NCBI GenBank assembly: GCA_017403885.1
Contig: JAFRDM010000066.1
Span: 21,558-85,557, forward strand
From: Oscillospiraceae bacterium
GTDB lineage: Bacteria > Bacillota > Clostridia > Oscillospirales > Oscillospiraceae
DNA: 64,000 nt
Reading direction: 5' to 3'
Both the position numbers and the translations under genes were made by a program. The stretch's first letter is position 1. Every line of letters starts with the position of its first letter. Positions 18,662 to 61,956 of this stretch are shown piece by piece. The notes below the pieces were generated by a model. It was not told the DNA's origin and did not search any database. It saw nothing but the letters and a program-made list of their open reading frames with translations.

Positions 18662-18662
18662 C

Positions 18663-20135: not shown

Positions 20136-20217
20136 GTTTTTTCCCCTTTTGCTTTCCTGCAGACGGACTATCCATAAAATACCATAGACGCGCTGCGTTT
20201 ACAAGCCGCGGCGGACG

Positions 20218-20255
20218 CAAAAAGGACCTGCGGCACGCCGCCGAGGTCCTTTTTT
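20218..20255. terminator. Rho-independent terminator (A-run/T-run flanked hairpin)
   Basis: Stem aaaaggacct/aggtcctttt located after the stop of the 20264-20860 gene. Confidence 0.6.
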
Positions 20256-20263
20256 GCTTTTGC

Positions 20264-20860
20264 TTATTCCTTTGTGCCGATGCGGATCGTATCAAGCAGC
20301 TCCCGGAGATCCTCTCCCCCGGCGAGCTCCTCGATCGTCTTGTCGCAGCCCTGCGCCTTGAGCAGCGTGAGCAGCAGATAGCTGTACTCGTCCACGCCCA
20401 GACAGAAGCAGACGCCGTCGCCCTCGCGGTAGCGGAAGCCCTCGACGCCGTTGAAGGAGACGCGCGCGAAGCCGGGATATTTCTTCTCCGCCGCGGCGGT
20501 GATGAAGGGAAGATCCTCGCCTTTGTAGTAGGAGGCGTATTCCATCTGCATCGAGAAATCCTCGCCGGTGACGACGGCGACGTGCGAATCGCTGGAATAG
20601 CTGAGAAAATCCTCGCCGATCACGTCGAAGCCGAAGCGCAGCGCGTCGTAGTCGAGCAGGACCTCCACGGTCCTGGCATCCTGAAAACCGGAGACGAAGC
20701 TGTACTCGCCCGTTTTCATCATCCTCTCGCGCGGCACGGCTTTCTTTTCGGCGGGGGCGCTTTTGGCTCCGCCCTCGTCCCGCTTCTTCAGCAGCAGCGC
20801 CGCGGCGGCGCCGCCGACGGCCAGCAGGCCCAACGGCGCGATCACTTTCCATTTGTTCAT
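20264..20860 (-). CDS. Hypothetical membrane-anchored protein
   Basis: GGAGGG RBS and an N-terminal anchor helix MNKWKVIAPLGLLAVGGAAAALLL. No recognisable family. Confidence 0.6.
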   Translation of the reverse strand: MNKWKVIAPLGLLAVGGAAAALLLKKRDEGGAKSAPAEKKAVPRERMMKTGEYSFVSGFQDARTVEVLLDYDALRFGFDVIGEDFLSYSSDSHVAVVTGEDFSMQMEYASYYKGEDLPFITAAAEKKYPGFARVSFNGVEGFRYREGDGVCFCLGVDEYSYLLLTLLKAQGCDKTIEELAGGEDLRELLDTIRIGTKE

Positions 20861-20916
20861 GACAGTCCCTCCGTTTCTCGCTTTGGATTTACTATATCAC
20901 GAACAGGGCGCTTTGT

Positions 20917-21951: not shown

Positions 21952-22045
21952 GGTTTTTTTCCTCCTTTTGTTGCTTGTTTTGTTATGATCGGGATCGTCT
22001 TACGCCCTATAGACGGTATACGGCGGGAAAAGTTCCCGGCAGGGG

Positions 22046-22084
22046 AGAAGAAAAACGGACCGAAAGCACGGCTTTCGATCCGTT
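22046..22084 (-). terminator. Rho-independent terminator of the PPIase gene
   Basis: 14-bp stem with one mismatch (aacggaccgaaagc/gctttcgatccgtt), with a T-run on the minus strand. Confidence 0.65.
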
Positions 22085-22101
22085 TTCTGCTTTGGCGGCG
22101 A

Positions 22102-26867: not shown

Positions 26868-28061
26868 ATGAAAAAAAGCTGTATCGCCATGCTCCTCGCC
26901 GGCGGACAGGGCTCACGCCTGTACGCGCTGACGCAGGACGTGGCAAAGCCGAGCGTCCCCTTCGGCGGTAAATACCGCATCATCGATTTCCCGCTTTCCA
27001 ACTGCGCCAACTCCGGCATCGACACGGTCGGCGTGCTGACCCAGTACCGCCCGCTGAAGCTCAACAGCTACATCGGCAACGGCCAGCCCTGGGACCTCGA
27101 CGTGTCCGACGGCGGCGTGTACATCCTGCCGCCCTATCTCGGCGCGCACGAGCAGGGCTCCTGGTTCTCCGGCACGGCGAACGCGATCTACCAGAACATC
27201 GCCTTCATCGAGATGTACGACCCCGACAACGTGCTGATCCTTTCCGGCGACCACATCTACAAGATGGACTATGCCGAGATGCTGCGCGTGCATTTGGACA
27301 ATGAGGCGGCCTGCACGATCGCCGTGCAGCAGGTCTCGATGGCCGAGGCTACGCGCATGGGCATTATGAGCGTTGACGAAAAGGACTTCATCACCGAGTT
27401 CGAGGAAAAGCCCAAGCAGCCCAAGAGCGATCTGGCCTCGATGGGCATTTACATCTTCAACTGGAAGAAGCTGCGCGCTGCCCTGATCGAGGATGAGAAC
27501 GACCCGAACTCCAGCAAGGACTTCGGCAAGAACATCATCCCGAAGATGCTCGCCGCGGGCGAGCGGATGCTGGCCTTCCGCTTCAAGGGCTATTGGCGCG
27601 ACGTCGGCACGATCACCTCGCTTTGGGATGCAAACATGGACATGCTCTCCCCGGATCTGATCAACCTGTTCGATCCCGACTGGCCCATCAGCTCCCGCAG
27701 CCCGGTCTGCCCGCCGCACTTTACGAGCAAAGACGCGAGGATCGTCCACTCGATCGTCACCGAGGGCTGCGAGATCTTCGGCGAGGTCGAGAACTCCGTG
27801 CTCTCATCCTCCTGCAAGGTCGGCAGGGGAGCGAAGGTGCTTTACAGTGTGCTGATGCCCGGCGCCGTCGTCGGAGACGGCGCGGTCGTGGAATACGCGA
27901 TCGTCGGCGAAAACACCGTGATCGGAGCCGGCGCGCACATCGGCGCTCCCCCCGACGGGACGGACGCCTGGGGCGTTGCGACCTGCGGCCCGGACATCAC
28001 GATCCGCGCGGGCGCCGTCGTGCCCGCCTCGGCCATGATCTACAGCGGCGAGGAGGTTTGA
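26868..28061 (+). CDS. glgC: Glucose-1-phosphate adenylyltransferase catalytic subunit
   Basis: [13 protein letters not shown] and [19 protein letters not shown] motifs. Confidence 0.93.
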
Positions 28062-28064
28062 GTC

Positions 28065-29177
28065 ATGAATAATTTCCATGGTGTCATCTTTGCCTACAGC
28101 GCCTCCCCCGAGCTGCGTGAGCTCGTCAGCCACCGTACCGCGGCCTCGATGCCGATCTTCGGCCGCTACCGCGTGATCGACTTTGCCCTCTCCTCGCTGA
28201 TGAACGCAGGCATCCACGACGTCGGCGTGATCATGCAGCGCGACTACCAGTCGCTGATGGATCATCTCCGCAACGGCAAAGCCTGGGACATGAGCCGCAA
28301 AGACGGCGGACTGCGTCTGCTGCCGCCCTTCGGCATGCCCGGCTACCACAGCGGGAACTACTTCGGTACGATGGAAGCGCTCAACGGCGTGGGTGAGTAT
28401 ATCCGTGACATCCCGCAGAAATATGTCGTTCTGCTGCTCGGCAGCATGTGCGCCAACCTCGATCTGCGCGCGGCGGCCAGGATGCATCTGCACTCCGGCG
28501 CGCCGATCACCGCGATCTGCAGCACCACGGTGCCTGACGCGCCGCAGCACCGCTACATCGTCGGCCCGGACGGCTATGTCAAGGAGGCGCTCTTCTACGT
28601 CGAGGGCGAGAGCCGCGGCTTCACCTCGCTGGAGGGCTACATCATCGACAAGGACCTGCTTGTGAAGATGATGGAAGAGTGCGCGGCGAAGAACCTCTAC
28701 CGCTTCCACCGCGACGCGATCGCGTCTTACCTCGCCGGAGGCGGGAAGATGGACGTCTATCTGCACGAGGGCTACTATATGCCCATCCGCTCGGTCGACC
28801 TGTATTACCGCGCCAACCGCGACATGCTCGACACCGACAAGCGGCACGACCTTTTCTGTGCCGAGCGCCCGGTCCGTACGCGTCACCATTCCCTCGTTTC
28901 CACCTACTACGGCGAGAAGGCCGTCTCCTCGAACAGCCTCGTGGGCGACAACTGCCGCATCATGGGCACCGTCGAGGACTGTGTCCTCTCGTCCGAAGTC
29001 GTTGTCGAGGAGGGCGCGTACCTCAAGGACTGCGTCGTCATGCGCCGCACGACGATCGGCAAGGGAGCCCGGCTCGAGAACGTGATCGTCGACAAAAACT
29101 GCATCATCTCTTCAGATACTGCGCTCAAGGGCAACGAAAAGCTGCCGCTCGTGGTCCCGAAGGGATCTCGAATCTGA
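28065..29177 (+). CDS. glgD: Glucose-1-phosphate adenylyltransferase subunit GlgD
   Basis: Paralogue of GlgC that lacks the GGxGxRL loop, located directly downstream of glgC (Firmicutes arrangement). Confidence 0.88.
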   Translation: MNNFHGVIFAYSASPELRELVSHRTAASMPIFGRYRVIDFALSSLMNAGIHDVGVIMQRDYQSLMDHLRNGKAWDMSRKDGGLRLLPPFGMPGYHSGNYFGTMEALNGVGEYIRDIPQKYVVLLLGSMCANLDLRAAARMHLHSGAPITAICSTTVPDAPQHRYIVGPDGYVKEALFYVEGESRGFTSLEGYIIDKDLLVKMMEECAAKNLYRFHRDAIASYLAGGGKMDVYLHEGYYMPIRSVDLYYRANRDMLDTDKRHDLFCAERPVRTRHHSLVSTYYGEKAVSSNSLVGDNCRIMGTVEDCVLSSEVVVEEGAYLKDCVVMRRTTIGKGARLENVIVDKNCIISSDTALKGNEKLPLVVPKGSRI

Positions 29178-29200
29178 AAGGCAGACACATAGCAGACCAG

Positions 29201-29240
29201 ACAAGCGCCCGTGAGAGCGGAAGCTTTCACGGGCGCTTGT
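29201..29240 (+). terminator. Strong hairpin after glgD (terminator or RNA-stability element; no U-tract)
   Basis: 14-bp perfect stem acaagcgcccgtga/tcacgggcgcttgt with a 12-nt loop, followed by tcaaaaag. Confidence 0.35.
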
Positions 29241-29475
29241 TCAAAAAGCCTTTCAGGCGTTTGTGAACCGCGCGCCTGCCGCCGTGCGTTTTCCCTTTTC
29301 CGGGCGAATACGCCTGCCCTGAAAGGGAATGCCGTATACCCCTCGCACCGGCGGTTTATCATACGCGAGGCAGGCCTTGCCCCCTCGCGCTCCCCCGCCG
29401 CCCTGCCGATCCCCTGCCTGATCGCAGCAGCGGGCAGAGATCTTTACATTCAGACTATCGGAGGACAAGCTTGTT

Positions 29476-31881
29476 ATGACCAGCCAAATCTCTAAAGACG
29501 AAGTCAGAAGCGCGATCGAGGATCGCCTCTGCGCGTATTTTGCCGTGACCGGAGAGACCGCCACCGACGACCAGATCTTCCAGGCCTCGGCGATGGTCAT
29601 CCGCGAGATCATGAGCCGCCTGCTCGCCGTCGAGAGCCCGCGGGCAAAAAACAAAGAAGTACATTACATGTCCATGGAGTTCCTCATGGGCCGCAGCCTG
29701 ATGAAGAACGCCTTCAATCTCGGTCTCTCCGAGGCCTTGATCGGCGCGCTCGCGGACATGGGCAAGAACGCCACGGACATTTTTGAGACCGAACCCGACG
29801 CAGGCCTCGGCAACGGCGGTCTGGGCCGCCTCGCCGCCTGCTATATGGACAGCATGGCCACGCTCGGCATGGAGGCCACCGGCTATTCCATCTGCTACGA
29901 GCTGGGCATTTTCCGCCAGCGCTTCAAGGACGGCAAGCAGACCGAGGTGGCCGACAACTGGCGCCTCGCGTCCGAAGGCTGGCTCGTTCCGTGCTATGCG
30001 GACGCGGTCGAGGTCCGTTTCGGCGGGCAGATCTCCGCGCACTGGGACGAATACGGCCATTACAGCGCCGTGCACACGGACTATACGCCCGTCACCGCGA
30101 TCCCGCGCGACATGCTCATCGCCGGCTACGAGGGAAAGGAGATCAACAAGCTCCGCCTCTGGGACGCCAAGAGCCCCAGCCAGTTGGACATGTATCTGTT
30201 CTCCAACGCCGAGTATGTCAAGAGCCTCGAGGAACGCACGATGGCCGAGGTCATCACCAAGGTGCTCTATCCCGCCGACGAAAAGATCGAGGGCAAGATC
30301 CTGCGTCTCAAGCAGCAGTATTTCTTCGTCTCCGCCACCGCGCAGGACATCGTGCGCAAGCACATCGAAAAGTGGGGCGACATCCGCTCCTTCGGCGAAC
30401 ATCACACGATCCAGATCAACGACACGCATCCCACGCTCATCATCCCCGAGCTGATGAGGCTCTTCATGGACGAGCACGATCTCGGCTGGGACGAGGCATG
30501 GGAGATCGTCAAGAAGAGCGTGGCCTACACCAACCACACGGTCATGAGCGAGGCGCTCGAGCGCTGGCCGCAGCAGATCATCCAGCAGCTCCTGCCCCGC
30601 ATCTGGGAGATCCTCTGCGAGATCAACCGCCGCTGGGTCAGCTACCTCATCTACAACTTCGGCCAGGACGAGCGCGTGGGCCGCAACCTGATCATCCGCG
30701 ACGACCAGGTGCTGATGGCCAATCTCTGCCTTGCCGCCTGCTACATGGTCAACGGCGTGTCCCGCCTGCACGGCGAGATCCTGCGCAACGACCTCTTCCG
30801 CGACCTCTGCGCTCTGCGCCCCGACCGCTTCACCTATGTCACCAACGGCATCGACCATCGCCGCTGGCTGGCGCAGATCAACCCCGGTCTGCACGGCCTC
30901 GTGTGCGAGCTGCTCGGCGGAGAGGAATATCTCACCGAGCCCGAGCGTCTCTCGGAGCTGGCCAAGTTCGCCGATGACGCCGAGGTACGCCGCCGCATAC
31001 TTGCCATCAAGGCCGAGAACAAGCGCCGCTTTGCCGATTTTGCCCGCCGCAACGACGGCTTTGCCTTCGATCCCGAGGGCATCATGGATGTGCAGGTCAA
31101 GCGCCTGCACGAGTACAAGCGCCAGCTGCTGTGCGCCATGCATATCGCAAGCCTGCAGCTGCAGCTGCACGACGATCCCAAGCGCGCCTTCACGCCGCGC
31201 ACCTTCGTCTTCGGCGCAAAGGCGGCCGCCGGTTACAAAACGGCGAAGCGCATCATCGAGCTGCTGCTGTCGATGGCCGCCGACATCAACAGCGATCCGC
31301 TCTGCCGCGGCAAGCTGCAGGTCTATTTCGTGGAGAACTACCGCGTCAGCGCGGCCGAGGCCATCGTGCCCGCCGCCCAGGTGTCCGAGCAGATCTCCAC
31401 GGCCGGCAAGGAGGCCTCCGGCACCGGCTGCATGAAGCTGATGATGAACGGCGCCGTCACGATCGGCACGCTCGACGGCGCGAACGTCGAGATGTACGAG
31501 CGCCTCGGCGATGAGAACATGTTCCTCTTCGGCCTGCACACCGATGAGATCGCCGCTCTGAAGGCGAAAGGCTACGATCCCGCGCGCGTCGCCGCGCAGG
31601 ACTGGGAGATCCAGCGTGTGCTCGACCGCTTCTCCCAGGGCTTCCGCGACGGCAAGAGCTATTCCGATCTTGTTTCCATGCTGCTTTACGGCGGCGACCA
31701 GTATATGCTGATCGCGGATTACCGCGCCTACGCCGACACCCAGAATCGTCTCTACGAGCGCATCGCCGACGAGGGCGAGCTCGGACGCCTCGCGATCATG
31801 AACACCGCGATGAGCGGCTTCTTTGCCGCCGACCGCGCGATCAGGGAATACGCGGACCACATATGGAAGCTCGATGCGTGA
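29476..31881 (+). CDS. glgP: Glycogen/alpha-glucan phosphorylase
   Basis: 801 aa with the PLP-lysine motif EASGTGCMKLMMNGA and GNGGLGRLAAC. Confidence 0.93.
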   Translation: MTSQISKDEVRSAIEDRLCAYFAVTGETATDDQIFQASAMVIREIMSRLLAVESPRAKNKEVHYMSMEFLMGRSLMKNAFNLGLSEALIGALADMGKNATDIFETEPDAGLGNGGLGRLAACYMDSMATLGMEATGYSICYELGIFRQRFKDGKQTEVADNWRLASEGWLVPCYADAVEVRFGGQISAHWDEYGHYSAVHTDYTPVTAIPRDMLIAGYEGKEINKLRLWDAKSPSQLDMYLFSNAEYVKSLEERTMAEVITKVLYPADEKIEGKILRLKQQYFFVSATAQDIVRKHIEKWGDIRSFGEHHTIQINDTHPTLIIPELMRLFMDEHDLGWDEAWEIVKKSVAYTNHTVMSEALERWPQQIIQQLLPRIWEILCEINRRWVSYLIYNFGQDERVGRNLIIRDDQVLMANLCLAACYMVNGVSRLHGEILRNDLFRDLCALRPDRFTYVTNGIDHRRWLAQINPGLHGLVCELLGGEEYLTEPERLSELAKFADDAEVRRRILAIKAENKRRFADFARRNDGFAFDPEGIMDVQVKRLHEYKRQLLCAMHIASLQLQLHDDPKRAFTPRTFVFGAKAAAGYKTAKRIIELLLSMAADINSDPLCRGKLQVYFVENYRVSAAEAIVPAAQVSEQISTAGKEASGTGCMKLMMNGAVTIGTLDGANVEMYERLGDENMFLFGLHTDEIAALKAKGYDPARVAAQDWEIQRVLDRFSQGFRDGKSYSDLVSMLLYGGDQYMLIADYRAYADTQNRLYERIADEGELGRLAIMNTAMSGFFAADRAIREYADHIWKLDA

Positions 31882-32750
31882 CCGTCATCGGCGGCGCCAA
31901 CACCGACATCTGCGGCCGACCTGATCGTGCGCTCGTCCGACACGACTCCGCCCCCGGGCGCGTCAGCGTCCGGCACGGCGGCGTGGGGCGCAACATCGCC
32001 TGCGACCTGGCGCGGCTGGGGCTTCGGACGCGCTTTGTCACGGCCCTCGGCGACGACGGTCTTGGCGCCTCGCTGCGGGAGAGCTGCCTGCGCTGCGGCG
32101 TGGATATGAGCCTTTCGCTCACGATCGGCGGCGCGCGCAGCCCGGTCTATCTGTACCTCAGCGACGAGAGAGGAGAGATGGATTCCGCGGTAGCCGACAT
32201 GGAGACCGCGGAGCGGCTTACGCCTGCGGCGCTGCGCGGTCTGCTCGGAGAGATCAACGCCTCCGACGCGGTCGTGATCGACGGCAACCTCCCGGCGGAG
32301 ACGATCGCCTTCCTCTGCGAAAAGCTCCGCGTCCCCATCGTCGCCGACCCGGTCTCCACGGCCAAGGCGCCGCGCTTTGCTCCTGTGCTCGACTGCCTCG
32401 CGGCGATCAAGCCCAATCTGATGGAGGCGCAGACCCTGACGGGAAAGAAAAACGCCGAGGACTGCGCCGAGGCGCTTCTGAAAGCGGGCGTGGGCAGCGT
32501 CTATCTCTCGCTTGGCGCGGGCGGGCTGCTCGCGGCCGCCGGAGAGGAGCGCATACTGCTGCCCGGTGAGAAGGCAAAGCTCGTCAGCGCCACCGGCGCG
32601 GGCGACGCAGCTACGGCCGCCGTTGCCTGGGCGCTCGTGCAGGGGCTCGACCTCGCCTCCGCGGCCCGCGCCGCCGTCGTGGCCGGCGCGATCACCGTCG
32701 AGAGCGAGGAGGCCGACAGCCCCCTGCTCCGCGCGGATCGGCTGCTATAA
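31863..32750 (+). CDS. PfkB-family carbohydrate/nucleoside kinase (pseudouridine-kinase-like)
   Basis: VIGGANTDI..., GGVGRNIA and C-terminal GAGDA motifs. Overlaps the glgP end by 19 nt. Confidence 0.8.
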   Translation: MEARCVTVIGGANTDICGRPDRALVRHDSAPGRVSVRHGGVGRNIACDLARLGLRTRFVTALGDDGLGASLRESCLRCGVDMSLSLTIGGARSPVYLYLSDERGEMDSAVADMETAERLTPAALRGLLGEINASDAVVIDGNLPAETIAFLCEKLRVPIVADPVSTAKAPRFAPVLDCLAAIKPNLMEAQTLTGKKNAEDCAEALLKAGVGSVYLSLGAGGLLAAAGEERILLPGEKAKLVSATGAGDAATAAVAWALVQGLDLASAARAAVVAGAITVESEEADSPLLRADRLL

Positions 32751-32756
32751 TTGAGC

Positions 32757-32798
32757 AAAAAAAAAGAAGGCACAGAATACTCTGTGCCTTCTTTTTTG
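32757..32798. terminator. Bidirectional rho-independent terminator
   Basis: 12-bp stem aagaaggcacag/ctgtgccttctt flanked by an A-run and a T-run. Confidence 0.8.
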
Positions 32799-32804
32799 CT
32801 GCGA

Positions 32805-34604
32805 TCACTCTTCGACCTCGAGCGGGGAGAAGCAGAACTTCGTGCAGTCGACGAGACCGCGGTCGGTCAGCCGCAGTTCCGGCAGGCAGGCCAGGGGAAT
32901 GAGCGCCATCGTCATAAAGGGGGAGACGATGTCGCAGCCGATCTCCTTCCAGGCTTCGGAGAGGACGGCGACCTTTTCACTCATCTCCTCGGCGCTCAGC
33001 GGGTTCATCAAGCCCGCGAGCGGCAGCTCGACGCAGCCGAGTATCTTTCCCTCCCGCACGGCGCACATGCCGCCGCCGCAGCGGATCAGCGTGTTGGCCG
33101 CGAGCGCCATATCCTCGTCGTTCGTCCCGACGACCAGCAGATTGTGCGCGTCGTGGGCGACCGTCGACGCCATTGCGCCGCACTTGATATCGAAGCCCTT
33201 GACAAAGCCGACGCCGTGCTTGCCGGTGTCGTGGTGACGCTCGAAAACAAAGGTCTTGAGCACGTCCTGCTCCACGTCGGACTCCAGCGCGCCGTCTTTG
33301 ACTTTCAGCGTCATATGGCGCTCATAGTCGCCCACGTGCGCGGGGATGATCTCGATCACGCGCACGAGAGCCTCGTCCTTCCTGTCGGTCTGCACGCGGA
33401 AGGTCGCGGGCGTGATCTCCTCGCCGACGTGCATCGTGTGCATCGCGCTTTCGGGGTAAGCATAGGGCGCGAACTCGCGCAGCATTTTCCCGTCCTCGGC
33501 GACGACCTCGCCGTCGATCATCATGCGGAAGGGCCGGAAGTCGTTCAGATCGCGTGAAAAGACGATATCCGCGCACTTTCCCGGCGCGATCGAGCCGAGC
33601 TCGTGGTCGAGCTGGAAGCACTGAGCGCAGTTGATCGTGACCATCTGGATCGCCGTGATCGGATCGACGCCGAAGGAGACCGCGCGGCGCACGATATGGT
33701 CGAGATGACCGTCGTTGACGAGGGTATAGGGGTGTGTGTCGTCGGAGATCATGATCGCAAAGCGGGTGTCGATCTCATGCTCGCGGATCGAGCGGCTGAC
33801 CTCCTGCAGATCGTGCCAGGCCGAGCCCTCGCGGAACATCGCATACATGCCCAGACGCATTTTCGCCAGCGCGTCCTCCATGCGGGTGGACTCGTGGCAG
33901 CAGCGGATGCCGCTTGCGATAAAGGCGTTGAGCGCCGCTCCGGTGTCGGGGATCGAGAAGTGGCCCGTCACGGTCTTGCCGGCCTTGAGCGTCTCGCCGG
34001 TGATGGCGTGCGTCTCCGGGACGGAATAGATGATGCCGGGGAAGTTCATCATCTCGCCCAGACCCACAACCTCGTCGCGCTTCATCTCCGAGGCGATATC
34101 GGCGGAGCTGATGGTACTGCCCGCGTCCTCAAAGCCGGGGACGGCGGGGACGCAGGAGGGCGTGGTCAGCATGGCCTTGAGAGGCGTGCGCGCGGCGTCC
34201 GCCACCATCAGGTCGACGCCCGGAAGGCCCATGACGTTGCAGATCTCATGCGGATCATAGAAAATGCCGGAGGTGCCGTGCGGGATGACGGAGCGGGCGT
34301 ATTCACCGGCGGAGAGCATGGACGACTCGATGTGGATGTGGCCGTCGAGCATACCCGGGGAGATGTACGCGCCGGCGGCGTCGATGACCTTCGTCCCCTC
34401 GCCGATACAGTGCTTCGCGTCGCCCACGAGCGCGATGCGCCCGCTGTGGATCGCGACGTCGGTGTGCTCGAGGATCTCATGCGTGCAGACGTTGACCAGC
34501 CTCGCGTCGGTGATGACCGTCTCGGCGGGGATCCTGCCCATCGCGACGGAGGAGAGAGCGGCGGAGCATTCCCAGAGAGGGACCTTGCAGAATTTGTTGA
34601 TCAT
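32805..34604 (-). CDS. ade: Adenine deaminase (amidohydrolase superfamily)
   Basis: ...ISPGMLDGHIHIESSML... metal-binding motif, about 600 aa. AAAGGA RBS before MINKF; the longer ORF-track N-terminus is Arg-rich and unlikely. Confidence 0.88.
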   Translation of the reverse strand: MINKFCKVPLWECSAALSSVAMGRIPAETVITDARLVNVCTHEILEHTDVAIHSGRIALVGDAKHCIGEGTKVIDAAGAYISPGMLDGHIHIESSMLSAGEYARSVIPHGTSGIFYDPHEICNVMGLPGVDLMVADAARTPLKAMLTTPSCVPAVPGFEDAGSTISSADIASEMKRDEVVGLGEMMNFPGIIYSVPETHAITGETLKAGKTVTGHFSIPDTGAALNAFIASGIRCCHESTRMEDALAKMRLGMYAMFREGSAWHDLQEVSRSIREHEIDTRFAIMISDDTHPYTLVNDGHLDHIVRRAVSFGVDPITAIQMVTINCAQCFQLDHELGSIAPGKCADIVFSRDLNDFRPFRMMIDGEVVAEDGKMLREFAPYAYPESAMHTMHVGEEITPATFRVQTDRKDEALVRVIEIIPAHVGDYERHMTLKVKDGALESDVEQDVLKTFVFERHHDTGKHGVGFVKGFDIKCGAMASTVAHDAHNLLVVGTNDEDMALAANTLIRCGGGMCAVREGKILGCVELPLAGLMNPLSAEEMSEKVAVLSEAWKEIGCDIVSPFMTMALIPLACLPELRLTDRGLVDCTKFCFSPLEVEE

Positions 34605-34728
34605 GCTGTTTCCTTTCCGATCCTGCGGATCACGGTTTTTTTGGGAAAAAGAAAAGGAGCTGCAGTTTAGCCTGCCCTCCTCAAAAACCGAACATGCGGC
34701 GGCGCGCCTGCGCCTCCGCAAAGGAAAA

Positions 34729-34799
34729 CCAGTAGTCGGACAGATCAGAGGGCTGTCCGGTAGAAACTCGGAGCCCCGTGATCGCTCCCATTATACCGG
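34729..34799 (-). promoter_or_regulatory. Purine riboswitch aptamer (guanine/hypoxanthine class, C at the specificity position) in the ade leader
   Basis: Minus-strand CCGGUA-UAAU-GGGAGC-GAUCACGG-GGCUCC-GAGUUUCUACC-GGACAG-CCCUCUGAU-CUGUCC-GACU-ACUGG aligns block-by-block with the B. subtilis xpt aptamer as recalled from memory (UAUAAU, GAU..GG, AGUUUCUACC, CCGACUA). Confidence 0.8.
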
Positions 34800-34824
34800 A
34801 TATGAACTTGTTTGCCACGCCATT

Positions 34825-34854
34825 AGTATACCCTGCGCCGCGGCGCGCTGGCAA
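34825..34854 (-). promoter_or_regulatory. Putative sigma-70-type promoter of the riboswitch-ade transcript
   Basis: Minus-strand TTGCCA, 18 nt, TATACT, about 25 nt upstream of the aptamer P1. Confidence 0.45.
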
Positions 34855-34970
34855 TTGTCATTCCCGCCAAACATGAAGGCGGCGGGGCCCGGGTTTTATA
34901 ACTCTTTTTCCCTAAGAGGGGATCGGTCTGCCGTGTCCGCGGGCATGCGCTCCGCGGACGGGAGTTTGGC

Positions 34971-34999
34971 TTGCAAATGACGCGGCGCGCCCCTATAAT
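34971..34999 (+). promoter_or_regulatory. Near-consensus sigma-70-type promoter of the TIR gene
   Basis: TTGCAA (34971-34976), 17 nt, TATAAT (34994-34999). Confidence 0.55.
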
Positions 35000-35073
35000 A
35001 CAATCAGCAGGGATATGACAGGCAGGCACAGCCTATATAAAAAAGGCTTCCGCCTTCCGGAAAGAGAGAGATC

Positions 35074-38000
35074 ATGGCTCGACAATACAAGGCCTTTATC
35101 AGCTATCGTCATCTGCCGCTGGACATGGACGTCGCAAAAAAAGTGCACCGCGCCATCGAGCATTTCGTCCTCCCACGGGCGCTGCGGAAGGACGGATGCC
35201 GGCGGCTCGGCTATGTATTCCGTGACGAAGACGAGCTGCCCATCTCCGGTGAACTGACGGAAAACATCCGCCTTGCGTTGGAGAACTCGGAATATCTTAT
35301 CGTGATATGCACCCCGGAAACCTCCAAATCCACCTGGGTGCTCAAGGAGATAGACACCTTCCTGTCGCTCCGCGACCATTCCCATGTTCTGCTGGTGCTG
35401 GCAGACGGCACTCCGGCAGAATCCTTCCCCCGCGCTCTCACCGAGCTGCGGGACGAGAGCGGCGCCGTCATCGGGGAATATGAGCCGCTCGCGGCCAACC
35501 TGGTCGCCCCTACGCCCTATGCCCGGAACAGAAGATTCAAGACGGAGATCCTCCGCATCCTGGCCGCGCTGGTGGGCTGTTCTTTCGACGAGCTTTACCA
35601 GAGGGAACGGCGCTATCAGCGGAGAAGGACCGGTCTGCTGCTTTCGCTGGCCGCGCTGGTGGCTGCGGTGTTCATCGGGGTGCTGCTGAACCGGAACGCG
35701 GAGATCAGCCGCCAGCTGCGGCAATCCAGGATCAACGAATCGGAATCACTGGCCGCCTTGTCAGAAAATGCGTTTCGGAAGGGCGACGTCACGCAGGCTT
35801 TGAACTATGCGCTGGACGCGCTGCCGGGAACGGGCGGCGAACGCCCCTATGTGGCCGCGGCGGAGGCCGCGCTGTGGAAAACGCTCAGACCGTACGGCAG
35901 TTCCATTTTTGCCTTTTCCAGCTCCATCGGGCAGGAGACGGCGATCGTCGGCATGGTCGCGTCGGGGGACGGACAGAAGGTCTATACAGGGGATCCTTAT
36001 GCGAAGATCCGCGCCTTCGATCTGAATAACGGCAGCTGTCTCTGGAGCTTTTCCCCGGAGCCCGGCCGGAGAATCGACGGCGCGCAGACGACCGGCGCGG
36101 GGGATCGGCTGCTGGTCGTTTATGCGGATGACGGATGCTGTCTGCTCTCCGGAGAGGACGGCTCCGTGCTTTGGGAGCGTGACGACCTCGACGCTTTTCT
36201 CCCTCCCCGGGACTGTGGGAGCTTCCTTGCGGTGGGCAGGGATGATCCGCAGGACCTCCGGCTGGTGGACGCGGAGGAAGGGAAAACGCTTATTCACTTC
36301 CCGCTGCACGCATACGGCACGGACGGGATTCGCCTTGCCGCGATCTCTCCGGATGAGAGCCGCGGCGCGGTCATGCTCTACGATGACGACAGCACGCTTC
36401 TGCTGCTGGATCTGTCCTCCGGCAAGATCGTGAAGCTCGCTGCGGAGATCCCTTCGGAGGTAGGATCAACATATATGATCCGCTTCTCCGAGCGGAACGA
36501 CCTGGCGATCGCGCGCGTCCCGCGGAATGATCAGGCCGAGATCTATGTGTTTTCCTGCCGGGAAGGATGGAGAGAGCAGAAGACGATCCTGACGGGGTAT
36601 CAAGTCCGTTATTCGGATGATTTTTCCCTTTCCATCAACGTCCCGCTCTTTGCCTGGAGCGGGGACGACATCGTCCTGGGGATGCAGACGGCTTTTCGTT
36701 CCTTCGATGCGAAAAGCGGAGAAATAAACTGGTCGATCGACCTGCCGGGCAATCTCTGCGCCGCCGAGGTCTATGACAACAACTCTTTCGGACTTGTGCT
36801 GGATAACGGCCGGGTCTGCTTTTCGAGCGGCGGCTATCTTTTCGCCTCGGCGTCCGCGACATCCTTCAACTGCAGCTTTGAGGTGGACCGGGCGCTGATC
36901 TGCGGCCAACGCTATTTGTACAGCAGCACGCTCGTGATCCCGCAGGAGGATGAGAACAGGATCGCCGTGATCCGCGCGCCTCAGCACGACGACTGGGAAA
37001 TGATCGCCGCCTCCGAGGAAGATTTTCCCGCGGGCGCCGGCCCGATCTTTTCTCCCTCCGGAAAAAAGCTGGTCCTGTTCAATTCCGATTATGTGACGCT
37101 CAGCGGAACGGCCTTCGACCTGGAGGAGGGAAGCAGCTTCCCCTTCTCCATCGAGCTGCCGCCGAGATACAACGAAACGACGTATAAGGGATACTTCTTC
37201 ACGGCCGATCGCTATTCCGGCACCGACGGGCATTTCTCCCTGACGGAGGATTTTGTCCTGATGAACGGGCCCGTCCTGTTCCGGCTGCGGGAGAACAGCG
37301 TGGACACGCTGCCCGCCGTAGAGGGCAGGGAACGTCCGTACGACGGCGTATACTGCTCCACGACCGACGCTGCCGGACATGTCGTCACCGTCACGGTCGA
37401 CGGCGGCGAGGGGATCCTTTTCCGCTGGCTGGACGGCGAGGCGCAGGACTGCCTCCCTCTCCCGGAGGAGGCATCCTCCGCGGTCTGCGGCGGCGTTGGC
37501 GCCGACGGCCGGGTGCTTCTGCTGTCGGACGACGCCGACGGGAACGGCGTCTGCCGCGTCTATTCTCCGGTCTCCGGCAGCTGCAGCCCGCTCGCGGAGA
37601 CGGAGGGCGAGAGGGAAGTGCTCTGCTTCGGCTTGCAAAAGCCCCGGCTTGCCCTGGTCGACGAAGCCGGACCGGCGCTTTTCGATCTCGAAAGCGGCGC
37701 GCTGCTGCGGCGCTTCGACTCCGAACTCCCGGCCGATTCCCTGGTGCGGCTCTGCTTTGTCCGCGACGACAGCCTCCTGCTGGCCTTTTCCAAGCAGGGA
37801 GACGTTCTGATCTTTGACGCGGAGAGCGGCGCGCTGCTCAAACGCGTCGGCTTCACCCCCACGGGACTTACTTTGAGCAAGACGTCCCGCATCTCCGTTC
37901 GGGAAGCGCCGGAACGCAATCTGCTGATGATCTTCTGTTATGAAGACATTTATACGGAGTCCGCCTGCGCTTTTCTGGATGCGGAGAGCTTTCAGCTGTT

Positions 38001-38148
38001 CGATCTGTATTGCTCTCCCATCGGCTGCGACCCTGTCAGCGGCCGTCTGCTGTTAAGCCGCTATAAAGACGGCCTGTATTCCGCGCCGCTTTATACACTC
38101 GAGGAGCTGACGGAGCAGGCCATGCAGCGGATCGGACATACGGATTGA
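35074..38148 (+). CDS. TIR-domain transmembrane protein with large C-terminal beta-propeller-like (PQQ/WD40-like) repeat region
   Basis: N-terminus KAFISYRH...LIVICTPETSKSTWVLKEID is TIR_2-like (Glu92). An RERRYQRRR basic stretch is followed by one TM (aa 187-205). After that come repeated ...D..SG..LW... blade-like units across about 810 aa. Confidence 0.8.
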   Translation: MARQYKAFISYRHLPLDMDVAKKVHRAIEHFVLPRALRKDGCRRLGYVFRDEDELPISGELTENIRLALENSEYLIVICTPETSKSTWVLKEIDTFLSLRDHSHVLLVLADGTPAESFPRALTELRDESGAVIGEYEPLAANLVAPTPYARNRRFKTEILRILAALVGCSFDELYQRERRYQRRRTGLLLSLAALVAAVFIGVLLNRNAEISRQLRQSRINESESLAALSENAFRKGDVTQALNYALDALPGTGGERPYVAAAEAALWKTLRPYGSSIFAFSSSIGQETAIVGMVASGDGQKVYTGDPYAKIRAFDLNNGSCLWSFSPEPGRRIDGAQTTGAGDRLLVVYADDGCCLLSGEDGSVLWERDDLDAFLPPRDCGSFLAVGRDDPQDLRLVDAEEGKTLIHFPLHAYGTDGIRLAAISPDESRGAVMLYDDDSTLLLLDLSSGKIVKLAAEIPSEVGSTYMIRFSERNDLAIARVPRNDQAEIYVFSCREGWREQKTILTGYQVRYSDDFSLSINVPLFAWSGDDIVLGMQTAFRSFDAKSGEINWSIDLPGNLCAAEVYDNNSFGLVLDNGRVCFSSGGYLFASASATSFNCSFEVDRALICGQRYLYSSTLVIPQEDENRIAVIRAPQHDDWEMIAASEEDFPAGAGPIFSPSGKKLVLFNSDYVTLSGTAFDLEEGSSFPFSIELPPRYNETTYKGYFFTADRYSGTDGHFSLTEDFVLMNGPVLFRLRENSVDTLPAVEGRERPYDGVYCSTTDAAGHVVTVTVDGGEGILFRWLDGEAQDCLPLPEEASSAVCGGVGADGRVLLLSDDADGNGVCRVYSPVSGSCSPLAETEGEREVLCFGLQKPRLALVDEAGPALFDLESGALLRRFDSELPADSLVRLCFVRDDSLLLAFSKQGDVLIFDAESGALLKRVGFTPTGLTLSKTSRISVREAPERNLLMIFCYEDIYTESACAFLDAESFQLFDLYCSPIGCDPVSGRLLLSRYKDGLYSAPLYTLEELTEQAMQRIGHTD

Positions 38149-38180
38149 GCCCGCGCGGCGTCCGTCCCTTTGCCGTATGA

Positions 38181-38216
38181 AAAAAAGATCCGGAACATTC
38201 GTTCCGGATCTTTTTG
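38181..38216. terminator. Bidirectional rho-independent terminator (TIR gene / rplL)
   Basis: Stem gatccggaac/gttccggatc flanked by aaaaaa and ttttt. Confidence 0.8.
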
Positions 38217-38238
38217 GTGTCTGAGAGTAAGGATCGTC

Positions 38239-38613
38239 TTACTTGAGCTCGACAGTGGCGCCGACGCCTTCGAGCTGGGCCTTGAGAGCCTCGGCGTCTT
38301 CCTTGGAGATGGCTTCCTTGATCTTGGCGTTCGGGGCGCTCTCGACAAGAGCCTTCGCCTCGGCCAGGCCGAGACCGGTGATGGCGCGGACTTCCTTGAT
38401 GACCTTGATCTTCTCAGCGCCGAAGCTGGTCATGACGACGTCAAACTCGGTCTTCTCTTCGACGACCGGGCCGGCGGCGGCGACGGCGGGGCCGGCGGCG
38501 ACAGCGGCGGCGGAAACGCCGAAGGTATCCTCGAGGGCATGGACGAGCTCGCTGAGCTCAAGAACGGTGAGACCCTTGATCTCCTCGATCATAGCGGTGA
38601 TTTTTTCGCTCAT
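38239..38613 (-). CDS. rplL: 50S ribosomal protein L7/L12
   Basis: ...[27 protein letters not shown]...GATVELK. Confidence 0.96.
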
Positions 38614-38650
38614 TGTTATTTTTCCTCCAAAATGTTTTTTCTTGCTGCGA

Positions 38651-39187
38651 TCATTCCGCAGCGGCTTCGGGAGCAGCGGACTCGAGAGAGCCGCCCTTCT
38701 GCTCCAGGATCTGGCCGAGGCAGACGGCCAGGCCGGTGATGGGTGCGATCATGGTGCCCAGGACCTTCGCGTACAGAGCGTCCTTGGAAGGAAGCGCCGC
38801 GATCTCCGCGATCTCGGACTCGCTCAGAATCTGTCCGTCCATAAAGGCGGCCTTGATGTTGAAGCGCTCCTTGAGTTTTTCGGAGTAGTCGCTGATGATA
38901 CGGAAAGGCGCGATGGGATCACCCGCGGTGGTAGCCAGAGAAGTCGTGCCGTTGAGCACGTCGTCCAGACCGCTCATTCCAAGCTTGTCCAGAGCCTTTC
39001 TGGTCAGGGTGTTTTTGACGACCGTGTAGTCGATGCCTTCCTTGCGCATTTCGGCGCGCAGAGCGGTATCCTCCAGAACCGTGATGCCACGGTAATCGAC
39101 CAGGATGCCGGAACCTGCGGACTTGATACGCTCGGCCAGCGCTTCGACGATCGCCTGCTTTTCGCTGAGAACCTTTGCGTTCGGCAT
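38651..39187 (-). CDS. rplJ: 50S ribosomal protein L10
   Basis: Typical L10 sequence located immediately upstream of rplL. Confidence 0.95.
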
Positions 39188-39340
39188 GTGTGTTTTTTCA
39201 CCTCCACACGATTGATGGCGCCCAAAAAGAAAACCCCTGCATCCAAAGGACGCAAAGGCACAATAACAATGAAGGAACTCGATTGTTGTTGTCCTCGGCA
39301 GGATTTACGGCCCTGAGGCCACCTGCTGTCTTCGGAGCGC
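39188..39340 (-). promoter_or_regulatory. rplJ 5' leader (probable L10-leader autoregulatory RNA)
   Basis: A structured untranslated leader of about 150 nt lies between the promoter and rplJ. L10/L12 operons in Firmicutes carry such a leader. The structure was not verified here. Confidence 0.45.
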
Positions 39341-39346
39341 TCGTAT

Positions 39347-39375
39347 AATATATCCTATCGTCCCGCTAAAGTCAA
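39347..39375 (-). promoter_or_regulatory. Putative rplJL promoter
   Basis: Minus-strand TTGACT, 17 nt, TATATT. Confidence 0.55.
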
Positions 39376-39403
39376 GGCTTTTTTCAAGTTTTTCCGCTTT
39401 TCG

Positions 39404-39432
39404 TTGACAGTGCCGGGCGGGGATGCTACAAT
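39404..39432 (+). promoter_or_regulatory. Consensus-like promoter of mntP
   Basis: TTGACA (39404-39409), 17 nt, TACAAT (39427-39432). Confidence 0.6.
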
Positions 39433-39472
39433 GTGCGAGTTCTTACTTTTTTCGTGTTTCGGGAGACTTCCG

Positions 39473-40063
39473 ATGAAGCTTGGTTTCGCTTTTTTCCTCA
39501 ACAGCGTGCTCTTCGGCGTCGGTCTTGCGATGGACGCTTTTTCCGTCTCGATCGCCAATGCGATCGCCGACCCGGACATGAAGCACGGCCAGCGCCTTCG
39601 CATCGCGGGCTGCTTTGCGCTCTTTCAGGTGCTCATGCCGCTCGCCGGCTGGCTCTGCGTCCGCACGATCGCCGAGAGCTTCACCGCTTTTCAGAGATTT
39701 ATCCCCTGGATCGCGCTGATCCTGCTGCTCTGGATCGGCGGCAAGATGCTGTTCGAAGGGATCCGCGGCCGCGCGGAGGGAGAAGCGGAGGAAACAAAAA
39801 CGCTCGGCCGCGGCACACTGCTGCTCCAGGGTGTGGCGACTTCGATCGACGCGCTCTCCGTCGGCTTCACGATCGAGGAGTATCCCCTCCCCGCCGCGCT
39901 GATCGAGTCGCTGATCATCGGCGCAGTCACGCTCGCGATATGCCTCGCCGGGCTTTTTCTGGGCCGGACGATCGGGCGAAAGCTCGACCGCATCGCACCC
40001 ATCCTCGGCGGGATCATCCTCATCGGCATCGGGGTCGAGATCTTTCTCACAGGCATTTTCTGA
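39473..40063 (+). CDS. mntP: Manganese efflux pump MntP
   Basis: ...GLAMDAFSVSIA... and ...SIDALSVGF... duplicated DUF204 motifs; six hydrophobic helices; GGGAGA RBS. Confidence 0.88.
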   Translation: MKLGFAFFLNSVLFGVGLAMDAFSVSIANAIADPDMKHGQRLRIAGCFALFQVLMPLAGWLCVRTIAESFTAFQRFIPWIALILLLWIGGKMLFEGIRGRAEGEAEETKTLGRGTLLLQGVATSIDALSVGFTIEEYPLPAALIESLIIGAVTLAICLAGLFLGRTIGRKLDRIAPILGGIILIGIGVEIFLTGIF

Positions 40064-45543: not shown

Positions 45544-45631
45544 TGGTGGGAGAAGTTGGATTTGAACCAACGCAGCCTTGCGGCAACGGATTTACAGTCC
45601 GCCCCATTTGACCGGACTCTGGCATTCTCCC
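45544..45631 (-). tRNA. tRNA-Tyr(GTA)
   Basis: Minus-strand cloverleaf with anticodon loop CUGUAAA, long variable arm and encoded CCA. 85/88 identical to the copy at 61864-61951. Confidence 0.85.
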
Positions 45632-45636
45632 ATATG

Positions 45637-45712
45637 TGGCGGGCTCTCCGGGAATCGAACCTGGGACGCGCAGATCTTCAGCCTGCCGCTCTACCGACTG
45701 AGCTAAGAGCCC
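45637..45712 (-). tRNA. tRNA-Phe(GAA), variant copy
   Basis: Anticodon loop CUGAAGA and encoded CCA. It has G73 and an A-C mismatch in the T-stem, unlike the copy at 61957-62032. Confidence 0.7.
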
Positions 45713-45715
45713 ATG

Positions 45716-45792
45716 TGGGGTGTGAGAGCGGACTTGAACCGCCGACATCCGGCGCCACAAATCGGCGCTCTACCAACTGAGCTGCTCACACC
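45716..45792 (-). tRNA. tRNA-His(GTG)
   Basis: Encoded G-1 opposite C73; loop UUGUGGC; A-C mismatch in the anticodon stem; encoded CCA. Confidence 0.72.
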
Positions 45793-45797
45793 ATGAA

Positions 45798-45872
45798 TGG
45801 TTGCAGGGGCGGGAGTTGGACCCGCTTGGGGCAGCTTATGAAGCCGCTGCATTACCGGTCTGCCACCCTGCA
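45798..45872 (-). tRNA. tRNA with CAT anticodon (Met elongator or Ile2-lysidine type), variant copy
   Basis: Loop UUCAUAA; U1-A72; atypical T-loop UCCAACU (the array-2 copy has UUCAACC). Confidence 0.6.
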
Positions 45873-45943
45873 TCGGTGCGCCCCGCTGCGTTGCAAACCG
45901 CCCTCCTTTTTGAGGAGACACCAAGGCCGTTGTGATACGGGGC
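45873..45943 (-). pseudogene. tRNA-like remnant / mini-tRNA-like element filling the Met-Leu spacer
   Basis: Minus strand has GCCCCGU...GCGGGGC acceptor-like pairing and an anticodon-arm-like hairpin UCUCC-UCAAAAA-GGAGG, but only about 15 nt where the variable and T arms should be, and no CCA. The corresponding spacer in array 2 is 3 nt. Confidence 0.3.
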
Positions 45944-46032
45944 TGGTGCACGAAGTGAGACTCGAACTCACAAGCCCATGACGGGCACCAGGTCCTTAGC
46001 CTGGCGCGTATTCCTCCTTCCGCCATTCGTGC
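45944..46032 (-). tRNA. tRNA-Leu(AAG) (A34)
   Basis: Type II tRNA with A73 and encoded CCA. Anticodon arm is CCAGG-CUAAGGA-CCUGG, so positions 34-36 are AAG. Confidence 0.75.
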
Positions 46033-46035
46033 ATA

Positions 46036-46111
46036 TGGTGCGCCTTGAGGGGCTCGAACCCACGGCCTTCGGATTAAGGATCCGCTGCTCTGCCGACTGA
46101 GCAAAAAGCGC
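46036..46111 (-). tRNA. tRNA-Lys(CTT)-like, atypical (C33)
   Basis: Anticodon arm GCGGA-UCCUUAA-UCCGA gives CUU at 34-36 but C at position 33. There is a U-U mismatch in the T-stem. CCA is encoded. Confidence 0.55.
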
Positions 46112-61951: not shown

Positions 61952-61956
61952 GTATG

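Follow-up and report, generated by a model that had tools for sequence, protein, structure and literature searches.

Can a bacterial TIR domain be governed by events outside the cytoplasm? The question is raised by a single gene in a 64-kb stretch of DNA (here called the window) from an Oscillospiraceae metagenome-assembled genome (MAG). The gene encodes a protein of 1024 amino acids that joins an N-terminal TIR domain, one predicted transmembrane helix, and a C-terminal double β-propeller. To our knowledge, all characterized bacterial TIR systems both sense and act inside the cytoplasm, and TIR-coupled surface sensing has so far been an animal hallmark. The reading proposed here, with a rough probability of 0.45, is that the protein is a type II membrane receptor whose outer double propeller senses an envelope-level cue and is coupled to a cytoplasmic TIR enzyme. 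The architecture and the family-level evidence are solid and unexpected; the function, as read from sequence, is unproven. If the family, which comprises thousands of proteins, is wired as read, bacteria may couple NAD-derived signaling or NAD depletion to envelope events such as the adsorption of phages, an attack by competitors, or damage to the wall.

A full-text literature search that included surveys of TIR domains, of prokaryotic WD40 proteins, and of Thoeris systems (2025), as well as conflict-system papers from the Aravind group, found no description of a TIR–transmembrane–propeller protein. This agrees with an earlier note on this DNA, made from the sequence alone, which knew of no functional work on the architecture. 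According to the survey of prokaryotic WD40 proteins, Firmicutes have almost none.

Domain architecture and predicted topology

The open reading frame (ORF) starts with ATG and is an exact sequence match to NCBI MBQ3482019.1. The public name of this entry, "PQQ-binding-like beta-propeller repeat protein," describes only the fold and misses the TIR domain; most named relatives are called "TIR domain-containing protein," and neither name conveys the combined architecture. A word-indexed search with the protein retrieves 242 relatives, and the 120 of them that are listed are nearly all 870 to 1150 amino acids long, nearly all with TIR_2 and PQQ_2 matches. The earlier note had proposed a TIR_2-like domain at residues 5 to 135 with Glu92 at the catalytic position, an Arg-rich stretch before a single hydrophobic helix (residues 187–205), a cytoplasmic TIR domain with the rest outside by the positive-inside rule, and blade-like units that probably form two propellers. 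The domain and motif assignments are borne out by the comparisons below, every quoted blade motif is present, and the topology is backed by prediction.

Two Pfam models match above threshold, TIR_2 with 32.0 bits (threshold 28) and ThsB_TIR with 28.5 bits (threshold 21.2). A TIR-only family profile searched against PDB sequences finds the bacterial TIR protein 7uxr (E = 3.5e-5), Roq1 (1e-4), and L6 (2e-4), and the TcpB and PdTIR structures are among the weak profile matches. An AlphaFold model of residues 1 to 180, built on an alignment of 91 homologs, reaches a predicted local distance difference test score (pLDDT) of 89.9 and a predicted TM-score (pTM) of 0.88. When this model is compared with the PDB by Foldseek, the 36 best matches are TIR domains without exception (E from 8e-5 to about 4e-3, TM-score 0.35–0.55), with TLR15, Roq1, SARM1, TIR-1, TLR1, TLR10, RPS4, L7, RUN1, AbTir, and SPARTA among the names, and TIR-STING and ThsB follow among the next matches.

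The family motif S-x-W-v-l-r-E-i (S86-x-W88-x-x-x-E92) aligns to SSTWCLEEL in Roq1 and SKWCLMEL in L6, and Glu92 therefore falls on the catalytic glutamate of these plant TIR enzymes; it also aligns with a glutamate of 7uxr. Position 92 is a glutamate in 90 of the 91 homologs, in which S86, W88, R50, D51, and E54 are invariant. At the motif level (catalytic Glu, αC SxW(C)xxE), the domain falls into the enzymatic TIR subclass, and it looks catalytically competent. The TIR domain could instead be a non-enzymatic assembly module of a surface propeller protein (an adhesin, a wall scaffold, or an enzyme platform) with recruitment as in animal Toll-like receptors (TLRs). Many TIR domains serve as scaffolds, as is generally known and surveyed (PMC7075850), the non-enzymatic TLR15, TLR1, and TLR10 are among the top Foldseek matches, and the window holds no effector gene. 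This role is nevertheless quite improbable, as the catalytic glutamate and the SxW motif of enzymatic TIRs are nearly invariant and no recurrent TIR-adaptor partner adjoins the family genes. The animal Box 2 and Box 3 are, moreover, typically absent from prokaryotic TIRs in general (PMC7075850).

The region beyond residue 280 is all-β up to residue 1005 in the full-length AlphaFold model (pLDDT 91.4, pTM 0.79). Strand counting in this model gives about seven plus eight blades, an approximate figure; the strands of propeller 2 span residues 604 to 1005, with one low-confidence loop (707–718). The region can be assigned to the WD40/PQQ-like propellers by sequence as well as by fold. The best Pfam match in propeller 1 is PQQ_2 (45.2 bits, threshold 27.6, residues 288–371), ANAPC4_WD40 reaches 27.1 bits (threshold 22.9), and weak matches to BamB and PA2928 models lie in propeller 1. 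Among the profile matches listed are WDR5, PkwA, and the Nostoc WD40 protein 2ymu for propeller 1, and the Apaf-1 WD40 region and Pwp2 for propeller 2. The profile matches the Apaf-1 WD40 region at E = 3e-25 and 2ymu at 7e-25, and Foldseek finds tandem double WD40 propellers (Utp21, Pwp2, Apaf-1) at E of about 1e-20. The protein does not belong to the PQQ-dependent dehydrogenases, whose model PF01011 scores 19.9 bits (threshold 26.7), nor is it a full-length equivalog of TIGR03300 BamB (23.6, cut-off 285) or TIGR03075 (13.9, cut-off 480). Self-BLAST of the ectodomain finds no internal repeats.

Between the TIR domain and the propellers lies the only strong hydrophobic peak of the protein. Residues 187 to 205 have a Kyte–Doolittle mean of 2.74 over 19 residues; the next peak reaches 1.26, and no other exceeds 1.6. 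A hydrophobic helix stands at about the same position in all 120 listed homologs, 118 of which have no second one. Six Lys/Arg residues lie within the 10 residues on its N-terminal side, and D172, L174, R177, R180, R184, and R185 of the preceding Arg-rich helix are kept in at least 90% of homologs. Averaged over the 120 homologs, there are 6.2 Lys/Arg among the 15 residues that flank the helix on the TIR side versus 2.75 on the far side, with an excess on the TIR side in every homolog.

Conservation continues through the membrane segment into the stalk that follows. F200, I201, G202, L204, and L205 of the helix are 87 to 99% conserved, the outer helix end taken together with the first stalk residues (also N206, R207, N208, A209, and I211) is conserved at 81 to 100%, and N208, I211, and P251 of the stalk are invariant. 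In the full-length AlphaFold model, one unbroken helix runs from residue 171 through the membrane segment to residue 235 and is followed by helices at 239 to 249 and 261 to 271. The near-invariant FIGxLLNRNAxI indicates more constraint than is expected of a passive anchor, and the region probably signals or packs helices.

A type II single-pass topology, with the N terminus inside and the C terminus outside, is supported by all sequence evidence available, because the protein has no signal peptide, a folded 186-residue TIR portion comes first, the Lys/Arg bias lies on the N-terminal side in all 120 homologs, and the first propeller belongs to the PQQ_2/BamB type. One transmembrane helix, the missing signal peptide, and the positive-inside bias together place it, by prediction, among type II proteins. 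PQQ_2 (Pfam: BamB), BamB, and PA2928 are taken as typically extracytoplasmic families. Were the helix not membrane-spanning, or the topology reversed, cytoplasmic propellers could sense an intracellular ligand in the style of the Apaf-1 WD40 region or of TIR-STAND proteins. This arrangement would suit the best matches, which are cytoplasmic WD40 proteins (Apaf-1, then WDR5 and Pwp2), and the known bacterial TIR sensors, which act in the cytoplasm. It is highly improbable, however, in view of the 19 strongly hydrophobic residues and of a helix and a TIR-side charge bias that are found in every listed homolog. A single spanning helix puts the two ends on opposite sides, and a folded 186-residue TIR portion without signal peptide is unlikely to be exported and needs cytoplasmic NAD+; the best Pfam propeller match, PQQ_2, is likewise of a type taken as extracytoplasmic.

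The same topology bears on a possible host-directed role, in which the protein would act like the Tcp-type virulence or immune-evasion factors (TcpB, TcpC, TirS) and interfere with animal TLR signaling. The organism lives in the animal gut or rumen, and TcpB and PdTIR appear among the weak profile matches. Yet such a role is hardly credible for an N-terminal TIR domain without signal peptide on the predicted cytoplasmic side, which would be neither exposed nor secreted. Known Tcp proteins are small soluble proteins, and the 800-residue propeller region has no counterpart in them.

Family-wide conservation and a variable insertion site

The protein belongs to a large and uniform family. With residues 1 to 275 as the query, an exhaustive HMMER search retrieves at least 2187 clusters (50% identity) when E ≤ 1e-30 is required, and 8504 when the cut-off is relaxed to 1e-10. 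Of the 150 clusters listed, most are about 1000 residues long and nearly all carry the TIR–transmembrane module at the N terminus; about a dozen are short and probably fragments. Three proteins of 1461 to 1520 residues (P0189, P0223, P0225) have about 350 extra N-terminal residues before the module. A scan of one genome per species finds at least 596 loci, and the named ones among those listed come nearly all from gut or rumen Bacillota (Oscillospiraceae/Ruminococcaceae, Lachnospiraceae, Erysipelotrichaceae/Solobacterium, Christensenella, and Mogibacterium), besides one MAG labeled Coriobacteriales.

Family members are pairwise 66% identical in the TIR domain, 67% in the pre-membrane helix, 50% in the transmembrane helix, and 53% in the stalk, versus 24 to 25% in the propellers. 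A conserved cytoplasmic, membrane, and stalk portion combined with a fast-diverging ectodomain favors receptor-like evolution, as far as sequence divergence can tell. In many loci, tblastn matched only residues 1 to 330, and a different C-terminal domain in distant homologs was considered; clustering ruled this out, since all 78 full-length members have homologous but very divergent propellers. A concentration of within-species substitutions in the ectodomain was likewise examined and is not significant: 13 of 13 differences in P0001 and 14 of 16 in P0237 lie at residue 237 or later, and the post-membrane region makes up 80% of the protein.

Some genomes hold two family paralogs. They are adjacent in L065 (2603–5971 and 5974–9321) and about 4.7 kb apart in L033 (6001–8940 and 13650–14909), and two copies lie on separate contigs in the MAGs RUG11238, RUG11393, RGIG8018, UBA6987, and SRR873601_bin.51.

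In the window, the gene order is glgP and pfkB (+), ade (–), the TIR-propeller gene (+), and rplL and rplJ (–). The earlier note's placement of the gene between ade and rplJL is correct, but the housekeeping setting that this implied is not, as the gene is an insertion that varies between strains, at a site that is itself variable. In three relatives of about 84 to 85% nucleotide identity (L092, L093, L094), blastn aligns positions 28001 to 34874 and 38239 to 40063 and nothing between; the 3.36-kb gap corresponds to the TIR-propeller cassette. The related contigs encode a GlgP at least 90% identical and an L10 about 99% identical to those of the window. The cassette is missing in 11 related genomes with the flanking synteny kept, so that the gene is patchy even among close relatives: rplL adjoins ade in L092, L093, L094, L103, and L104, and it adjoins pfkB in L096 to L101, where ade is missing too. 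In the cassette-free relatives, tblastn detects no remnant of the TIR gene. After the ade leader, L091 carries at the same site (15459–22406) a phage-type integrase, a PriCT_1/AAA_25 primase, and small ORFs. The interval between rplL and pfkB/ade thus occurs in four states: empty, with ade only, with ade and the TIR cassette, and with ade and the integrase/primase element.

Absence from collinear relatives and the integrase element at the same site therefore mark the gene, on comparison of the genomes, as cargo that varies by strain or species at a site likewise variable, and not as a housekeeping gene. At 90% identity, the cluster of the TIR-propeller protein has 4 members versus 295 for GlgP and 93 for L10, and synteny with ade or rplJL is conserved at none of 90 homolog loci. 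The GC content of the gene is the same as that of its flanks. No convincing target-site duplications or att-like repeats flank the cassette, and neither flanking repeats nor mobility genes were found in the window.

The gene lies behind a near-consensus promoter, as the earlier note had stated. The putative TTGCAA-17-TATAAT promoter matches 10 of 12 consensus positions, and the consensus scan finds four promoter-like sites in the region versus 0.8 expected. Downstream, a perfect 15-nucleotide inverted repeat (AAAAAGATCCGGAAC/GTTCCGGATCTTTTT) between an A-run and a T-run forms the terminator; positions 38140 to 38245 have a folding energy of –41.4 kcal/mol (z = –4.1). With its own putative promoter and terminator, the gene would therefore be a separate, monocistronic transcription unit.

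Recurrent neighbors and the proposed mechanism

All-against-all clustering of the ORFs from 84 family loci reveals only two recurrent types of adjacent gene, which encode RyR-domain membrane proteins and a DHH phosphoesterase. The RyR/K+-channel-type neighbors occur in 15 loci (about 18%), upstream or downstream, on either strand, and in at least four bacterial families including Lachnospiraceae, Oscillospiraceae, and Erysipelotrichaceae. They usually form a pair. One member has about 500 residues and combines an Ion_trans_2 K+-channel pore, whose filter reads TVGYGD, with an RyR domain (PF02026) at its C terminus. The other, a paralog of about 625 residues, has several transmembrane helices and a split RyR-like motif. 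One of these loci (L025) holds the seventh-closest relative of the window protein. The DHH/DHHA1 phosphoesterase of about 500 residues, with a C-terminal extension of about 200 residues, adjoins the TIR gene in 14 of the 84 loci (about 17%), all Lachnospiraceae, again upstream or downstream and on either strand, and the other neighbors there are not conserved.

In an independent Pfam scan of 117 immediate neighbors, the families found most often include RyR (six times), DHH (five times), and Ion_trans_2 (four times), and two methyltransferase domains also reach four. The RyR/channel neighbors have no PADLOC or NCBIfam match, and the DHH neighbors have no PADLOC match. A defence-model scan of the same 117 proteins gives scattered matches only, led by mad2 with four members; these are probably generic methyltransferase matches, because four neighbors carry methyltransferase domains. 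Within the window itself, tblastn and hmmsearch with the family profiles against six-frame ORFs find no RyR, channel, or DHH homolog, and tblastn finds no paralog of the N- or C-terminal part of the protein. The claim of the earlier note that no partner gene is present thus stands for the window, where the gene appears monocistronic, but not for the family.

Two further neighborhoods were observed. In Erysipelotrichaceae (L008 8001–16624, also L009, L010, and L034), a row of three genes begins with a TIR–transmembrane–propeller protein of 1066 residues, continues with an unannotated 883-residue protein that has hydrophobic segments in its N-terminal part as well as a weak RyR-like motif, and ends with a 906-residue TIR_2 and TPR/Sel1 repeat protein, after which a large CW_binding_2 surface protein follows. 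The 883-residue neighbor in L008 and L034 was not counted as an RyR partner, its RyR-like motif being weak (E = 0.01). A 438-residue HTH_3 and AAA_28 protein lies directly downstream in L007 (8587–9903) and L011 (9078–10394), which hold the two genomic relatives closest to the window gene (45% identity), and this type of neighbor occurs in only four loci (L007, L011, L012, and L058).

The RyR/channel proteins are candidate effectors for a TIR-made signal, by analogy with systems described recently, and the DHH phosphoesterase may degrade such a signal. The presence of both in relatives therefore favors signal production over NAD depletion alone. In a 2026 preprint, phage RyR-domain proteins are reported to bind or cleave the TIR products 2′cADPR and 3′cADPR, which are isomers of cyclic ADP-ribose (cADPR) (PMC13232231). 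A 2025 preprint describes type X Thoeris as a TIR and ion-channel pair that defends against phage (doi 10.64898/2025.12.03.692087).

A conflict role against phages or competitors is favored by the accessory status of the gene, the variable site, the paralog arrays, and the divergent ectodomain, insofar as these sequence features reflect function. Its main rival is a physiological second-messenger role, in which the protein would sense an envelope, osmotic, or nutrient cue, a TIR-made second messenger would tune K+ channels, and the DHH protein would turn the messenger over. The recurrent K+-channel/RyR and DHH/DHHA1 neighbors fit this role, as do the mostly housekeeping flanks without a defence-island signature and the very strong conservation of the cytoplasmic module across bacterial families. 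The control of K+ homeostasis in Bacillota by cyclic di-AMP, with its DHH-type phosphodiesterases, offers a parallel. We nevertheless regard the physiological role as unlikely: a homeostatic regulator would not usually be present in some close relatives and absent from others at a site that also takes a mobile element, the ectodomain diverges fast and paralogs are arrayed, and no channel or DHH gene is present in the window.

The sequence comparisons establish the domain architecture, the conserved catalytic motif, the conserved single helix with its charge bias, the accessory nature of the gene, the extent and hosts of the family, and its recurrent neighbors; topology, enzyme activity, activation by clustering, the cue, and a role in defence are inferred. 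In the receptor mechanism proposed here, the fast-evolving double propeller would stand outside the cytoplasmic membrane of a cell of Gram-positive lineage and bind an envelope-level cue. The likeliest cue would be a structure of an invader or competitor, such as the particle or the tail tip of a phage, or else a wall-damage product. Ligand-driven clustering or re-orientation would pass via the conserved stalk, the transmembrane helix, and the Arg-rich helix, so that the cytoplasmic TIR domains meet. Their self-association, as in other TIR enzymes, would form the active site around Glu92, and NAD+ would be cleaved. The output could be NAD+ depletion or a signal derived from ADP-ribose. In relatives with adjacent RyR-domain K+-channel-like proteins, the signal could open or modulate the channel; in the genome of the window, the effector would be absent or encoded elsewhere.

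A more specific version for the partnered loci, in which a cADPR-type nucleotide made by the TIR domain after outside sensing gates the RyR K+ channels and is cleared by the DHH protein, is distinctly unlikely as a complete chain. If true, the chain would parallel in a prokaryote both the surface sensing of TLRs and the signaling from cADPR to the ryanodine receptor, and it would be the first case of a bacterial immune or signaling TIR that senses outside the cytoplasm. The RyR neighbors, together with the binding of cADPR isomers by RyR domains, offer a tractable bacterial model for the long-debated link between cADPR and the ryanodine receptor.

Several observations weigh against the receptor mechanism. 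Propellers of the WD40 type usually lie in the cytoplasm, and the topology is read from prediction rules. A membrane-anchored ectodomain in a thick-walled cell may miss phage particles, and any cue named here is a guess. The family neighbors are mostly housekeeping genes with scattered defence-model matches, which weakens the usual argument from defence islands. No effector gene is present in the window, and the six closest relatives (L011, L007, L017, L015, L004, and L024) likewise lack the RyR/channel and DHH neighbors. PADLOC has no model for the protein; its matches to unrelated models are confined to the TIR part, and ThsB is matched at E = 0.026.

Table 1. Features of the window and of the neighboring genes in related family loci
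Feature	Sequence	Position	Strand	Basis
Accessory cassette (promoter, gene, and terminator)	window	34875..38238	+	missing in related genomes (blastn)
Putative sigma-70-type promoter TTGCAA-17-TATAAT	window	34971..34999	+	consensus match only
Putative purine-rich ribosome-binding region GGAAAGAGAGAG, 3 nt 5′ of ATG	window	35059..35070	+	putative, from reading of the sequence
Coding sequence, TIR + transmembrane helix + double propeller, 1024 aa, MBQ3482019.1	window	35074..38148	+	
TIR domain, aa 1–170, predicted cytoplasmic	window	35074..35583	+	Pfam, AlphaFold, Foldseek, profile search
Codon of Glu92, putative catalytic Glu, SxWxxxE motif	window	35347..35349	+	alignment to Roq1, L6, 7uxr
Arg-rich pre-membrane helix, aa 171–186, with RERRYQRRR (aa 177–185)	window	35584..35631	+	
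Predicted single transmembrane helix, aa 187–205, GLLLSLAALVAAVFIGVLL	window	35632..35688	+	Kyte–Doolittle
Conserved juxtamembrane helical stalk, aa 206–275 (NRNAxI ... ALP ... RPYVxEAExAL)	window	35689..35898	+	
Propeller 1, about aa 276–595, about 7 blades, boundary approximate, predicted extracytoplasmic	window	35899..36858	+	
Propeller 2, about aa 596–1010, about 8 blades, boundary approximate, predicted extracytoplasmic	window	36859..38103	+	
Bidirectional intrinsic terminator, common to the gene and the convergent rplJL operon	window	38182..38215	.	
RyR pair	L061	2556-4436 and 4487-5986		
RyR pair	L063	9343-11217 and 11214-12761		
Other RyR loci	L016, L020, L023, L025, L037, L046, L057, L064, L065, L066, L067, L073, L082			
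DHH phosphoesterase	L059	4242-5771	–	
DHH phosphoesterase	L075	4487-5998	+	
Other DHH loci	L060, L062, L068, L071, L076-L079, L083, L085, L087, L090			

The surroundings of the gene in the window hold further elements. A purine riboswitch aptamer (34713–34818, –; Rfam RF00167, 43.7 bits) lies 5′ of ade, which encodes adenine deaminase, and its position places the true ade start downstream of the TTG at 34721, where the longest ORF begins. A ribosomal protein L10 leader (39219–39353, –; RF00557, 65.8 bits) stands 5′ of rplJ, as expected. Two dense tRNA arrays, all on the minus strand, occupy 45547 to 46111 (6 genes) and 61867 to 63569 (17 genes).

Comparison with known systems

With Thoeris ThsB, the window protein has in common a bacterial TIR domain with the catalytic glutamate and a Pfam ThsB_TIR match above threshold. 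About 18% of the family loci additionally pair the TIR gene with a channel-type membrane protein, which resembles the ThsB and ThsK channel of type X Thoeris. The type X ThsB sequences are short ThsB-type TIRs, and their signal is undefined in that study (Table S1, doi 10.64898/2025.12.03.692087). ThsB is, however, small and soluble and senses in the cytoplasm, whereas the TIR domain described here is fused to a transmembrane helix and an 800-residue, predicted extracellular double propeller. An effector operon is lacking in the window, although some of the family loci have one, and the gene lies among glgP, pfkB, ade, rplL, and rplJ and not in a defence island. Assignment to a known defence system was considered and rejected, since PADLOC matches only the TIR part of the protein and its ThsB match is not significant.

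Animal TLR and interleukin-1 receptors resemble the protein in being single-pass, with a large repeat ectodomain outside, a TIR domain inside, and an expected ligand-driven association of the TIR domains. The likeness has its limits. TLRs are type I proteins that begin with a signal peptide and end with the TIR domain, whereas the window protein is a predicted type II protein with its TIR domain at the N terminus. The ectodomains of the animal receptors are built from leucine-rich repeats or immunoglobulin domains, unlike the double β-propeller found here, in which no leucine-rich repeat family is matched, and the TIR domain of TLRs is an adaptor scaffold, unlike one that carries the enzymatic SxWxxxE motif. 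The resemblance is one of analogy, not orthology.

SARM1, the plant TIR-NLRs (Roq1, RPP1, L6), and bacterial TIR-STAND proteins with WD40 or TPR repeats likewise couple a motif-bearing TIR domain to a repeat sensor, and they are activated by oligomerization. The tandem propeller of the sensor in Apaf-1 is similarly 7+8-blade-like. These proteins are fully cytosolic and use a nucleoside triphosphatase (NTPase) or an ARM/SAM switch, whereas no NTPase is present here and a membrane helix separates the TIR domain from the sensor.

The TIR effectors of CBASS and Pycsar are activated by a nucleotide that a cyclase makes. The window protein differs from these and from the TIR effectors of type III CRISPR systems (TIR-SAVED, TIR-STING) in having neither a nucleotide-sensor domain nor an adjacent cyclase: no SAVED, STING, or cyclase domain is found in the protein or its neighbors, and the PADLOC SAVED_TIR match covers the TIR domain only (residues 6–110 against profile positions 15–106 of 404). 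In a Pycsar-related family, TIR and transmembrane effectors are reported as separate types that are activated by the cyclase-made nucleotide.

In the amoeba protein TirC, a single helix holds a TIR NADase at the membrane, and the tether restrains the toxic enzyme (PMC13142454). TirC is thus also a single-helix membrane TIR protein, but its helix is a tether only and bears no ectodomain. The receptor Ser/Thr kinases of the PknD type consist of an N-terminal cytoplasmic output domain, one transmembrane helix, and a C-terminal extracytoplasmic propeller. This domain layout is the same as that of the window protein; the difference lies in the output, which is a kinase in PknD and a TIR domain here, where no kinase family is matched. 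By analogy, the window protein is most like a cross of a PknD-type receptor and an oligomerization-activated TIR enzyme.

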